Positions 3-4,214 of a stretch of 4,214 nucleotides of DNA are shown here, piece after piece. Both the position numbers and the translations under genes were made by a program. Position 1 is the first letter of the stretch. Every line of letters starts with the position of its first letter. Where the stretch lies: the IMG/VR virus record IMGVR_UViG_2529292835_000008. One strand, written 5' to 3'. The notes below the pieces were generated by a model. That model saw only the letters and a program-made list of their open reading frames with translations. It did no database searches and was not told the DNA's origin. This stretch comes from a virus. Taxonomy: Duplodnaviria > Heunggongvirae > Uroviricota > Caudoviricetes.

Positions 3-266
3 ATTGGAGCCGGAAGAATGGCCATTGACGGGCTCAAGGAGGTTCAGGAATCAGTGATGCGCATTGAGGCCGGACTGAGCACGTATGAGAAAGAGCTGGC
101 GCTGATGGGCGAGGATTATCAGGACATTTTCCGCCAGCAGGTCAGGGAATCTGCAGAGCGGGAAAAAGCCGGACTCTCACGTCCGGTGTGGATAGCGCAG
201 GCGTATCAGCAGCAGATAGCGGAGAGTCGCAGGCCGGAAGAGGAGACAACACCACGTGAGACGTAA
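3..266 (+). CDS. B: Portal protein, C-terminal fragment (5' end lies upstream of the window)
   Basis: Frame 0 is open from the window edge to TAA at 264-266. The translation (...MAIDGLKEVQESVMRIEAGLSTYEKELALMGEDYQDIF...) matches my recollection of the lambda gpB C-terminus, and the position immediately upstream of the C protease gene is the conserved lambdoid order. Confidence 0.8.
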   Translation: MGAGRMAIDGLKEVQESVMRIEAGLSTYEKELALMGEDYQDIFRQQVRESAEREKAGLSRPVWIAQAYQQQIAESRRPEEETTPRET

Positions 267-1562
267 TCTTTCACACATTATTGCCGCAGCATTCAATGAA
301 CCGCTGCTTCTGGAGCCCGCCTATGCGCGGGTTTTCTTTTGTGCGCTTGCAGGCCAGCTTGGGATCAGCCGCCTGACGGATGCGGTGTCCGGTGACAGCC
401 TGACTGCCCAGGAGACACTCGCGACGCTGGCGTTATCCGGTGATGATGACGGACCACGACAGGCCCGCAGTTATCAGGTCATGAACGGCATCGCCGTGCT
501 GTCGGTTTCCGGCACGCTGGTCAGCCGGACGCGGGCGCTGCAGCCGTACTCGGGGATGACCGGTTACAACGGCATTATCGCCCGTCTGCAACAGGCTGCC
601 AGCGACCCGATGGTGGACGGCATTCTGCTCGATATGGACACGCCAGGCGGAATGGTGGCGGGGGCATTTGACTGCGCTGACATCATCGCCCGTGTGCGTG
701 ACATAAAACCGGTATGGGCGCTGGCCAACGACATGAACTGCAGTGCAGGTCAGCTGCTTGCCAGTGCCGCCTCCCGGCGTCTGGTCACGCAGACCGCCCG
801 GACAGGCTCCATCGGCGTCATGATGGCTCACAGTAATTACGGTGCTGCCCTGGAGAAACAGGGGTGGAAATCACGCTGATTTACAGCGGCAGCCATAAGG
901 TGGATGGCAATCCTACAGCCATCTTCCGGATGACGTCCGGGAGACACTGCAGTCCCGGATGGACGCAACCCGCCAGATGTTTGCGCAGAAGGTGTCGGCA
1001 TATACCGGCCTGTCTGTGCAGGCTGTGCTGGATACCGAGGCTGCAGTGTACAGCGGTCAGGAGGCCATTGATGCCGGACTGGCTGATGAACTTGTTAACA
1101 GCACCGATGCGATCACCGTCATGCGTGATGCACTGGATGCCTAAATCCCGTCTCTCAGGAGGGCGAATGACCAAAGAGACTCAATCAACAACTGTTTCAG
1201 CCACTGCTTCGCAGGCTGACGTTACTGACGTGGTGCCAGCGACGGAGGGCGAAAACGCCAGCGCGGCGCAGCCGGACGTGAACGCGCAGATCACTGCAGC
1301 GGTTGCGGCAGAAAACAGCCGCATTATGGGGATCCTCAACTGTGAGGAGGCTCACGGACGCGAAGAACAGGCCCGCGTGCTGGCAGAAACCCCCGGTATG
1401 ACCGTGGAAACGGCCCGCCGCATTCTGGCAGCTGCACCACAGAGTGCACAGGCGCGCAGTGACACTGCGCTGGATCGTCTGATGCAGGGGGCACCGGCAC
1501 CGCTGGCTACAGGTAACCCGGCATCTGATGCCGTTAACGATTTGCTGAACACACCAGTGTAA
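256..1562 (+). pseudogene. C: Prohead protease C (S49/ClpP-like), disrupted by three frameshifts
   Basis: The homologous protein is split over three frames: frame 1 at 256-879 (207 aa, stop TGA 877-879), frame 0 at 864-~913 (VEITLIYSGSHKVDGNP), frame 2 at ~911-1144 (YSHLPDDVRETLQSRMDATRQ...DALDA, stop TAA 1142-1144), then frame 0 at 1140-1562 (PKSRLSGGRMTKETQ...NTPV). Joined, the segments give about 436 codons, consistent with the 439-aa lambda gpC. The first candidate start is GTG 256, preceded by GAGGAG at 240-245; the lambda-equivalent start position (247) reads CAA here. Confidence 0.75.
1167..1562 (+). CDS. nu3: Capsid scaffolding protein Nu3, nested in the 3' part of C
   Basis: ATG at 1167 is preceded by a strong Shine-Dalgarno AGGAGGG (1157-1163). 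The 131-aa ORF MTKETQSTTVSATASQ...NDLLNTPV is in the same frame as the final C segment and ends at TAA 1560-1562, with no frameshift downstream of 1167. If Nu3 instead begins at the upstream Met at 959 (MDATRQ, frame 2), that longer form is interrupted by the stop at 1142-1144. Confidence 0.75.
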   Translation: MTKETQSTTVSATASQADVTDVVPATEGENASAAQPDVNAQITAAVAAENSRIMGILNCEEAHGREEQARVLAETPGMTVETARRILAAAPQSAQARSDTALDRLMQGAPAPLATGNPASDAVNDLLNTPV

Positions 1563-1571
1563 GGGATGTTT

Positions 1572-1904
1572 ATGACGAGCAAAGAAACCTTTACCCATTA
1601 CCAGCCGCTGGGCAACAGTGACCCGGCACATACGGCAACCGCGCCCGGCGGATTGAGTGCGAAAGCGCCTGCAATGACCCCGCTGATGCTGGACACCTCC
1701 ACCCGTAAGCTGGTTGCGTGGGATGGCACCACCGACGGTACTGCCGTTGGCATTCTGGCGGTTGATGCTGACCAGACCAGCACCACGCTGACGTTCTACA
1801 AGTCCGGCACGTTCCGTTATGAGGATGTGCTCTGGCCGGAGGCTGCCAGCGACGAGACGAAAAAACGGACCGCGTTTGCCGGAACGGCAATCAGCATCGT
1901 TTAA
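1572..1904 (+). CDS. D: Head decoration protein D
   Basis: A 110-aa ORF from ATG 1572 ([27 protein letters not shown]...[10 protein letters not shown]) closely matches lambda gpD, with a few substitutions. An SD-like AAGGGA sits at 1561-1566. The ORF track's ATG at 1566 would add 2 residues but has no spacing to the SD. Confidence 0.9.
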
Positions 1905-1921
1905 CCTTACCCTTCATCACT

Positions 1922-1946
1922 AAAGGCCGCCTGTGCGGCTTTTTTT
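1922..1946 (+). terminator. D-E intergenic GC hairpin followed by a T-run (terminator-like or mRNA-stabilising stem-loop)
   Basis: Stem 1922-1930 (AAAGGCCGC) pairs with 1935-1943 (GCGGCTTTT), loop CTGT at 1931-1934, followed by a T7 run at 1940-1946. A second T7 run at 1953-1959 lies directly before the E start codon. Confidence 0.5.
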
Positions 1947-1959
1947 ACGGGATTTTTTT

Positions 1960-2985
1960 ATGTCGATGTACACAACCGCCCAGCTGCTGGCGGCAAATGA
2001 GCAGAAATTTAAGTTTGATCCGCTGTTTCTGCGTCTCTTTTTCCGTGAGAGCTATCCCTTCACCACGGAGAAAGTCTATCTCTCACAAATTCCGGGACTG
2101 GTAAACATGGCGCTGTACGTTTCGCCGATTGTTTCCGGTGAGGTTATCCGCTCCCGTGGCGGCTCCACCTCTGAATTTACACCGGGATATGTCAAGCCGA
2201 AGCATGAGGTGAATCCGCAGATGACCCTGCGTCGCCTGCCGGATGAAGATCCGCAGAATCTGGCGGACCCGGCTTACCGCCGCCGTCGCATCATCATGCA
2301 GAACATGCGAGACGAAGAGCTGGCCATTGCCCAGGTCGAAGAGATGCAGGCAGTTTCTGCTGTGCTTAAGGGCAAATACACCATGACCGGTGAAGCCTTC
2401 GATCCGGTTGAGGTGGATATGGGCCGCAGTGCGGCCAACAACATCACACAGTCCGGTGGTACGGAGTGGAGCAAGCGTGACAAGTCCACGTATGACCCGA
2501 CCGACGATATCGAAGCCTATGCGCTGAACGCCAGCGGAGTGGTGAATATCATCGTGTTTGATCCGAAAGGCTGGGCGCTGTTCCGTTCCTTCAAAGCCGT
2601 CAAGGAGAAGCTGGATACCCGTCGCGGCTCTAATTCCGAGCTGGAGACAGCGGTAAAAGACCTGGGCGAAGCGGTGTCCTATAAGGGGATGTATGGCGAT
2701 ACGGCGATCGTCGTGTATTCCGGACAGTACGTGGAAAACGACGTCAAAAAGAACTTCCTTCCGGACAACACGATGGTGCTGGGGAACACTCAGGCACGCG
2801 GTCTGCGCACCTATGGCTGCATTCAGGATGCGGACGCACAGCGCGAAGGTATTAACGCCTCTGCCCGCTACCCGAAAAACTGGGTGACCACCGGCGATCC
2901 GGCGCGTGAGTTCACCATGATTCAGTCAGCACCGCTGATGCTGCTGGCTGATCCTGATGCGTTCGTGTCCGTACAACTGGCGTAA
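1960..2985 (+). CDS. E: Major capsid protein E
   Basis: A 341-aa ORF from ATG 1960 (MSMYTTAQLLAANEQKFKFDPLFLRLFF...DAFVSVQLA) is near-identical to lambda gpE as I recall it. The ORF track's upstream start at 1933 lies inside the terminator-like hairpin and is probably not used. Confidence 0.95.
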   Translation: MSMYTTAQLLAANEQKFKFDPLFLRLFFRESYPFTTEKVYLSQIPGLVNMALYVSPIVSGEVIRSRGGSTSEFTPGYVKPKHEVNPQMTLRRLPDEDPQNLADPAYRRRRIIMQNMRDEELAIAQVEEMQAVSAVLKGKYTMTGEAFDPVEVDMGRSAANNITQSGGTEWSKRDKSTYDPTDDIEAYALNASGVVNIIVFDPKGWALFRSFKAVKEKLDTRRGSNSELETAVKDLGEAVSYKGMYGDTAIVVYSGQYVENDVKKNFLPDNTMVLGNTQARGLRTYGCIQDADAQREGINASARYPKNWVTTGDPAREFTMIQSAPLMLLADPDAFVSVQLA

Positions 2986-2987
2986 TC

Positions 2988-3008
2988 ATGGCCCTTCGGG
3001 GCCATTTT
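2988..3008 (+). promoter_or_regulatory. E-FI intergenic stem-loop with a TTCG tetraloop
   Basis: ATGGCCC (2988-2994) pairs with GGGCCAT (2999-3005), loop TTCG at 2995-2998, followed by TTT and a pyrimidine tract. The stem sequesters the in-frame ATG at 2988. Confidence 0.5.
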
Positions 3009-3026
3009 CTCTCTGTGGAGGAGTTC

Positions 3027-3413
3027 ATGACGAAAGATGAACTGATTGCCCGTCTTCAGGAGCTGGGTGAGCAACTGAACCGTGATGTCAGCCTGACGGG
3101 GACGAAAGAAGAACTGGCGCTCCGTGTGGCAGAGCTGGAAGAGGAGCTTGATGACACTGCCGATCAGGATACCCCTCTCAGCCCGGAAAATGCGCTGACC
3201 GGACATGAAAATGAGGTGGTATCAGCGCAGCCGGATACCGTGACTGATACGGCTGCTCTGGTCACGGTTGTGGCACTGGTGACGCTGCATACCGATGCAC
3301 TTCACGCCACGCGGGATAAACCTGTGGCATTTGTGCTGCCGGGAACGGCGTTTCGTGTCTCTGCCGGTGTGGCAGCCGAAATGACAGAGCGCGGCCTGGC
3401 CAGAATGCAATAA
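3027..3413 (+). CDS. FI: DNA-packaging / head assembly protein FI
   Basis: ATG 3027 is preceded by SD GGAGGA (3017-3022). The 128-aa product MTKDELIARLQELGEQLNRDVSLTGTKEELALRVAELEEELDD...MTERGLARMQ resembles lambda gpFI, with several substitutions and a small in-frame length difference in the acidic central region. Confidence 0.85.
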   Translation: MTKDELIARLQELGEQLNRDVSLTGTKEELALRVAELEEELDDTADQDTPLSPENALTGHENEVVSAQPDTVTDTAALVTVVALVTLHTDALHATRDKPVAFVLPGTAFRVSAGVAAEMTERGLARMQ

Positions 3414-3424
3414 CGGGAGGCGCT

Positions 3425-3778
3425 GTGGCTGATTTCGATAACCTGTTCGATGCTGCCATTGCCCGCGCCGATGAAACGATACGCGGGTACATGGGAACGT
3501 CAGCCACCATGACATCCGGTGAGCAGTCAGGTGCGGTGATACGTGGTGTTTTTGATGACCCTGAAAATATCAGCTATGCCGGACAGGGCGTGCGCGTTGA
3601 AGGCTCCAGCCCGTCCCTGTTTGTCCGGACTGATGATGTGCGGCAGCTGCGGCGTGGAGACACACTGACCATCGGCGAGGAAAACTTCTGGGTGGACCGG
3701 ATTTCGCCGGATGATGGCGGAAGCTGTCATCTCTGGCTTGGGCGGGGCGTACCGCCTGCCGTTAACCGTCGCCGCTGA
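3425..3778 (+). CDS. FII: Head-tail joining protein FII
   Basis: GTG start at 3425 is preceded by SD GGGAGG (3415-3420). The 117-aa ORF MADFDNLFDAAIARADETIRGYMGTSAT...GRGVPPAVNRRR matches lambda gpFII in length and sequence, and ends at TGA 3776-3778. Confidence 0.85.
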   Translation: MADFDNLFDAAIARADETIRGYMGTSATMTSGEQSGAVIRGVFDDPENISYAGQGVRVEGSSPSLFVRTDDVRQLRRGDTLTIGEENFWVDRISPDDGGSCHLWLGRGVPPAVNRRR

Positions 3779-3789
3779 AAGGGGGATGT

Positions 3790-4035
3790 ATGGCCATAAA
3801 AGGTCTTGAGCAGGCCGTTGAAAACCTCAGCCGTATCAGCAAAACGGCGGTGCCTGGTGCCGCCGCAATGACCATTAACCGCGTTGCGTCATCCGCGATA
3901 TCGCAGTCTGCGTCACAGGTTGCCCGTGAGACAAAGGTACGCCGGAAACTGGTAAAGGAAAGGGCCAGGCTGAAAAGGGCCACGGTCAAAAATCCGCAGG
4001 CCAGAATCAGGGTTAACCGTAACCGGCTCATTTAA
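3790..4035 (+). CDS. Z: Tail completion protein Z homolog, ending prematurely at 81 codons (lambda gpZ is about 192 aa)
   Basis: ATG 3790 is preceded by an AAGGGGGA SD-like run. Residues 1-77 (MAIKGLEQAVENLSRISKTAVPGAAAMTINRVASS...KNPQARIRVNR) match lambda gpZ nearly exactly. Similarity is lost from codon 78, and an in-frame TAA follows at 4033-4035. Confidence 0.7.
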   Translation: MAIKGLEQAVENLSRISKTAVPGAAAMTINRVASSAISQSASQVARETKVRRKLVKERARLKRATVKNPQARIRVNRNRLI

Positions 4036-4072
4036 ACCGTCTGGTCTGTTTCCTCCGGCTCTACAAAAATAA

Positions 4073-4094
4073 TGTCCATCATTTTTAATGGACA
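4073..4094 (+). other. AT-rich inverted repeat (hairpin) in the post-Z segment
   Basis: TGTCCAT (4073-4079) pairs with ATGGACA (4088-4094) around an 8-nt loop CATTTTTA. It lies in a locally AT-rich stretch (4060-4100), unlike the GC-rich coding sequence upstream. Confidence 0.4.
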
Positions 4095-4101
4095 CTATCG
4101 T

Positions 4102-4214
4102 ATGAAACACCGGACCTGGATCACTGAAGCTTTACGTCTTCACTTTGAAGAACATTTACCCCGGGTTGTGGCCGGGCGTCGCCTGGGTGTACCAAAATCA
4201 ACTGTTTGTAGTAT
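4102..4214 (+). CDS. Partial ORF (5' part only) encoding a helix-turn-helix-like N-terminus; identity unknown (divergent Z continuation or a DNA-binding/transposase-like protein)
   Basis: Frame 1 is open from 4036 to the window edge, with ATGs at 4072 and 4102. Translation from 4102 is MKHRTWITEALRLHFEEHLPRVVAGRRLGVPKSTVCS; the motif RRLGVPKSTV resembles HTH segments of transposase or regulator N-termini. No obvious SD precedes either ATG. Confidence 0.3.
   Translation, partial: MKHRTWITEALRLHFEEHLPRVVAGRRLGVPKSTVCS

Follow-up and report, generated by a model that had tools for sequence, protein, structure and literature searches.

ISCro1 inserted in codon 77 of the tail-completion gene Z of a lambda-like prophage

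Gene Z, which encodes the tail completion protein of this lambda-like prophage, is broken at codon 77, and the explanation we favor, with a probability of roughly 0.97, is that ISCro1 transposed into it. ISCro1 is a 2,699-bp insertion sequence (IS) of the IS66 family with the gene order tnpA-tnpB-tnpC. The break lies close to the end of the window, the whole stretch of 4,214 nucleotides that was analyzed, which carries the end of B, C/Nu3, D, E, FI, FII and the start of Z; in relatives the order continues Z-U-V-G-T-H. Judging from close relatives, the rest of the IS, its right junction and the 3' part of Z would follow beyond the window edge in this genome. The features around the break are:

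3790..4035, + strand: truncated tail-completion gene Z (Z'), an 81-aa ORF that ends ...ARIRVNRNRLI and a stop
4011..4018, no strand: left copy of the target-site duplication, GGTTAACC, a perfect palindrome; the octamer flanks both IS ends in strain 120899 (L001)
4014..4025, no strand: tandem TAACCG TAACCG, composed of target TAACC (4014-4018), IS nucleotide 1, G (4019), and IS nucleotides 2-7, TAACCG (4020-4025)
4019..4214, + strand: left end of ISCro1, nucleotides 1-196 of 2,699, identical to the IS in strain 120899 and ended by the window edge
4019..4040, + strand: left terminal inverted repeat (IRL), GTAACCGGCTCATTTAAACCGT, matching the reverse complement of the right end, GTAAGCGACTCGTCAGAACCGT, at 16 of 22 positions
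4072..4214, + strand: 5' part of tnpA, sharing its frame with Z; PGAP places the start at 4072, and an ATG at 4102 is an alternative

The assignment of Z to lambda gpZ, the tail completion protein, rests on a family match and on a position between FII and U, both of which hold here. Z' matches Pfam Minor_tail_Z (E=3.4e-27) over profile positions 1-78 of 190, and no Z sequence is found past position 78. Aligned with the intact 192-aa Z of L002, it differs by one substitution in 77 residues, and identity ends after Arg77, so that 115 of the 192 residues are gone. The ORF is made up of 76 phage codons, an Arg77 codon that spans the junction, four IS codons (NRLI) and the stop TAA at 4033-4035, where the first-pass annotation had placed it. 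The third base of codon 77 comes from the IS (CGT instead of CGG), and retention of the arginine is due to chance only. PGAP describes the counterpart of Z' in strain 120899 as 'phage tail protein, incomplete, missing C-terminus'. The DNA comparison agrees with the abrupt loss of similarity to lambda Z after ARIRVNR that had been noticed from the letters. When window 3700-4214 was compared with 50,697 phage records, all 15 matches listed ended at query base 320 (window 4019), at no more than 99.1% identity, and none of the 92 matching records covered at least 80% of the query. Phage DNA runs through 4018 and the break falls between 4018 and 4019. One base, the G at 4019, can be read as target or as IS; the GTAA/TTAC symmetry of the IS ends assigns it to the IS.

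The DNA past the break belongs to a mobile element. Over window 4021-4214 it matches the left ends of IS66-like elements in many E. coli records at 100% identity, and the annotation there makes it the beginning of 'IS66-like element accessory protein TnpA'. Of 5,426 complete E. coli genomes, 1,746 have matches at some level of identity, 5,336 places in all, on chromosomes and plasmids alike. The database comparison proposed for the post-break sequence returned ISCro1. The start of tnpA in the window was set from the annotation of strain 120899, in which tnpA at 7473-8150 corresponds to window 4072 onward; the frame translates as MSIIFNGHYRMKHRTW... and the NCBIfam profile IS66_access_TnpA, which starts at residue 13, gives 294 bits (cut-off 150). 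The IS66 transposase domains were scored on the whole copy of strain 120899, of which the window holds the first 196 bp only. That copy is 2,699 bp long, has GTAA...TTAC termini with imperfect inverted repeats, and carries tnpA, tnpB (8150-8497) and tnpC (8517-10088) in one orientation. TnpA contains Pfam HTH_Tnp_1. TnpB matches Pfam TnpB_IS66 (E=4.7e-40) and exceeds the cut-off of NCBIfam IS66_TnpB. TnpC matches Pfam DDE_Tnp_IS66 (E=2.5e-103), together with zf-IS66, LZ_Tnp_IS66 and DDE_Tnp_IS66_C, and reaches 478 bits with NCBIfam transpos_IS66 (cut-off 180). A DDE-type TnpC, tnpA and tnpB upstream of tnpC, an 8-bp target duplication and imperfect inverted repeats beginning 5'-GTAA together place the element in the IS66 family; ISfinder and Han et al. 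2001 reportedly give such repeats as a feature of the family.

The name ISCro1 was first given in Citrobacter rodentium, and the element is widespread on E. coli chromosomes and plasmids. The element shares with the known one its length, its tnpA-tnpB-tnpC order, its GTAA...TTAC termini and its 8-bp duplication, and PGAP calls the transposase of strain 120899 'IS66-like element ISCro1 family transposase'. It is ISCro1 by length, annotation and published description, and in these respects no difference is detectable. A published account (PMC12115866) gives ISCro1 a length of 2,699 bp, places it in the IS66 family and reports duplications of 8 bp.

The identical Z/IS junction is found in six complete chromosomes of ETEC strains and in one IMG/VR contig (L038). 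In all six chromosomes the whole IS sits at exactly the position seen in the window, flanked by the 8-bp duplication. The terminal inverted repeats and target-site duplication that the first-pass annotation proposed to look for are both there: in strain 120899, between GTAA...TTAC ends, the octamer GGTTAACC occurs at 7412-7419 and again at 10119-10126. The genes of that prophage read Z 5' pseudogene, tnpA, tnpB, ISCro1 family transposase, Z 3' pseudogene, U, V, G, T, H. The empty site, represented by L002, has a single copy of the octamer (AGGGTTAACCGGGGGG) and reads AG GGTTAACC GGGGGGAT, whereas the occupied site reads AG GGTTAACC (GTAACCGGCTC...2,699 bp...GAGTCGCTTAC) GGTTAACC GGGGGGAT. Excising the IS with one copy of the duplication yields the full 192-aa Z. 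Alignment to the intact allele confirms that the window from 4019 onward is not Z, the true continuation (GDLPVIKLG...) lying beyond the IS, 2.7 kb downstream, in relatives.

RefSeq relatives already annotate the Z::ISCro1 insertion as a pseudogene (CXW56_RS03000/RS02975 in NZ_CP025916, strain 120899). Insertion point, orientation and duplication are identical there, and so is the IS over the 196 bp in view. The prophage of strain 120899 is only 98.4% identical to the window, however, carries another allele before window 262 and has an intact gene C, unlike that of the window. The two were compared by gapped BLAST because of indels. The closest sequences to the window, drawn from complete E. 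coli genomes, IMG/VR contigs and metagenome loci, are 98.2-98.4% identical. The window, L038 and strain 120899 differ by clustered substitutions, which is the usual recombinational mosaicism. The IS right end on a second contig (L267) of the IMG genome that contains L038 is not the Z right junction.

On the favored reading, the DDE transposase would have cut the target with an 8-bp stagger, as is usual for the IS66 family, and repair would have duplicated GGTTAACC on either side of the IS. Z would be left with 77 of 192 residues plus the four IS-encoded ones, ending at the TAA within the IS terminal repeat, and the tandem TAACCG would arise where the duplicated target, ending TAACC, meets an IS that begins GTAACCG. 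The right junction expected in this genome is ...CGCTTAC GGTTAACC GGGGGGATTTGCC.

The short repeats noticed at the break find their place in this arrangement. The tandem hexamer at 4014-4025 and the further AACCG at 4035-4039 are both present as reported. The coincidence of the former with the breakpoint is not due to chance, the end of the target meeting the IS terminus there. Readings of the tandem as a target duplication or as a deletion scar were rejected: the final five bases of the target (TAACC) run directly into the IS terminus, GTAACCG. Exact tandem hexamers are in themselves ordinary, another occurring at 1490-1491 and composition-matched shuffles giving a mean of 0.93 per window. 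The AACCG at 4035-4039 is part of the conserved IS end and is found in the terminal inverted repeats at both ends. The IRL includes the TAA stop as well as an AACCGT block at 4035-4040, and both IS ends begin GTAA and have AACCGT at nucleotides 17-22.

Could the break have another origin? The first-pass annotation had proposed a recombination or insertion junction, and of its three versions the mobile element end stands, in the form of the ISCro1 left end, while the mosaic boundary and the deletion scar do not. A deletion scar is excluded, as Z picks up again immediately beyond the IS in relatives. A mosaic boundary, produced by recombination between the Z of one lambdoid phage and unrelated phage DNA, would suit a prophage of this group; lambdoid prophages are mosaic, and the window has such a boundary near 262-347. 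However, the post-break sequence is an IS terminus with many occurrences outside phages, 1,345 of them on plasmids, and the exact resumption of Z after the IS in relatives, with the 8-bp duplication and with Z restored once the IS is removed, makes this origin extremely unlikely. It had also been suggested that the region past 4020 might be a divergent in-frame segment of Z carrying a nonsense codon, and no second stop does interrupt the frame over the 59 codons between 4036 and the window edge. Those codons, however, are IS inverted repeat and tnpA, matching NCBIfam IS66_access_TnpA and lying in the Z frame by coincidence, and with the real continuation of Z found on the far side of the IS in relatives the probability of a divergent Z is close to nil.

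Short-read contigs often stop within a multicopy IS, as the window does, and a contig ending in a repeated IS might have been misjoined to the prophage, with no IS in the Z of the source. Against such an assembly artefact, the identical junction, with both flanks and a perfect duplication, is present in six independently finished chromosomes, and the same junction occurs in an IMG/VR contig that has the private gene C frameshifts of the window; a misjoin is thus very unlikely. Transposition of ISCro1 into Z accounts for the junction, and the window edge is probably a repeat-induced contig break.

Further copies of ISCro1 offer a view of how the element behaves after insertion. Among 61 copies with both ends in view, 39 have matching 8-bp duplications and 22 do not, which suggests frequent recombination or rearrangement between copies after insertion. 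In the genome studied here the far side could have been lost in this way. Four further prophage insertions carry perfect 8-bp duplications. In the draft genome of Escherichia sp. MOD1-EC7003 (NZ_PTRE01..., L003-L037) about 33 contig ends run into the ISCro1 left terminus, the element being massively expanded and fragmenting the assembly. In the same draft (L033, near 37-80) an ISCro1 sits within a related IS66-like element, 18 bp from the left end of the latter, which is itself flanked by GATTAACC, and in O103:H2 strain 129 (L041, 6813-6830) one ISCro1 adjoins a second copy that is without its first 6 bases. ISCro1 contigs also appear in metagenome-assembled genomes of unrelated phyla, 'Segatella copri' (L008, JAJXBQ010000315) and 'Clostridiales' (L028, SFGJ01000083), the latter contig consisting of nothing but the IS, at exactly 2,699 bp. 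Contamination during binning, not true residence in these hosts, is the most likely reason.

Why should the target so resemble the end of the element? Left flanks were gathered from public collections with the exact 26-nt left end of ISCro1 and supplemented with the E. coli loci, giving 214 non-redundant sites with the window's own left out; right flanks form an independent set (n=98), and the flank loci are L003-L299. Both sets reveal a two-fold symmetric preference, C-N-[G-N-T-T-A-A-N-C]-N-G. The preferred bases in the left flanks are:

Position -11: G, 76/214
Position -10: C, 89/214
Position -8: G, 93/214
Position -6: T, 103/214 (A/T 81%)
Position -5: T, 88/214
Position -4: A, 106/214
Position -3: A, 109/214 (A/T 83%)
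Position -1: C, 85/214

The right flanks are the mirror image, with G at +1, A/T at +3 and +6, A at +5, G at +10 and C at +11. In either set A/T is also enriched 16 and 19 bp beyond the duplication (-24 and -27; +24 and +27), at 71-79% against about 55%, some two helical turns from the target center. The C at -10 was present in 69% of a first sample of 35 sites and in 42% of the 214, which is still highly significant. The idea that duplicated octamers are palindromic as whole units was rejected, the mean being 1.03 complementary pairs against an expectation of about 1 (n=35); the symmetry is visible only in the position-by-position profile.

The site in the window, A-G-[G-G-T-T-A-A-C-C]-G-G, fits the consensus except at -10. 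It scores above 91% of real ISCro1 sites and ranks 63rd among 6,404 positions in the intact 6.4-kb prophage stretch (top 1%). Targets ending TAACC occur at 3 of the 214 other sites where base composition predicts 0.25, about 12 times more commonly than expected (p=0.002). Because ISCro1 prefers G-N-T-T-A-A-N-C targets, a look-alike junction is far likelier than base composition predicts, and a TTAA-type preference meeting the terminus of the IS therefore makes the tandem TAACCG a fairly predictable by-product.

Symmetric consensus sequences within the duplicated bases, together with flanking context, are a feature of IS231A and of Tn10/IS10. ISCro1 shares with these a two-fold symmetric consensus centered on the duplicated bases, along with symmetric A/T positions about two helical turns out; it differs in its transposase family, its 8-bp duplication and the consensus itself, here derived from sequence. 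No description of a target preference for ISCro1 or the IS66 family was found in the searchable literature. We tentatively propose that ISCro1, and perhaps IS66 elements more widely, may recognize a symmetric footprint of about 46 bp, (T)GC-N-[GNTTAANC]-N-GC(A) with A/T 16 and 19 bp outside each end, a proposal to which we give slightly less than an even chance. The outlying A/T positions suggest that the transposition complex may bend or wrap the target DNA.

In the 6.4-kb prophage stretch, two of the six best-scoring positions are sites that are occupied in other strains. Related lambda-like prophages carry ISCro1 at five other positions in the head-tail module, those two sites among them:

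L039 (E. coli EC1722-1): 3' end of U, TCATTACC
L040 (RMDEC332): 3' end of Z, GCATCAAC
L041 (O103:H2 129): within U
L042 (GZ2408C): 5' end of V, GGTTTATA
L043 (H10407): between D and E, GTTTGATC

All five are oriented along the direction of late transcription, in a search that joined same-strand pieces only and from which no orientation bias can be claimed.

For the prophage, the consequence of losing Z may be read from lambda, where particles without gpZ look normal and are mostly non-infectious (PMC11099176). The prophage is probably unable to make infectious particles, and at best would make normal-looking, mostly non-infectious ones. Z is not the only damaged gene. Relative to its closest relatives, gene C (S49 head protease, 256-1562) has 1-base deletions at 863 and 911 and a 2-base deletion at 1140-1141, which split C over three frames and leave the frame of the nested scaffold (Nu3) intact. 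These lesions are inherited mutations, since L038 carries them too; they are not present in the ETEC copies with the same IS insertion. Most simply, they arose after the IS insertion, an order that would fit the decay of a disabled prophage.

The window is mosaic elsewhere. A boundary lies at the B/C junction: bases 1-347 are 99.7% identical to another prophage of ETEC strain 120899, and 262-4214 are 98.4% identical to the Z::IS prophage. Position 262 is where all of the best full-length matches start, the first 261 bases being a different allele. In gene FI (3025-3392) a cluster of substitutions with a net 9-base in-frame length difference at about 3157-3163, relative to strain 120899 and L038, marks a variable allele patch.

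Disruption of a prophage structural gene by an IS is routine, and the finding itself is of little importance. For annotation it means that the prophage should be flagged as defective, with Z disrupted and C frameshifted, and that no protein should be called from the 81-codon ORF. If true, the footprint proposed for ISCro1 predicts insertion hot spots, and a quantitative target profile could help to predict those of an IS active both on resistance plasmids and in pathogenic E. coli.
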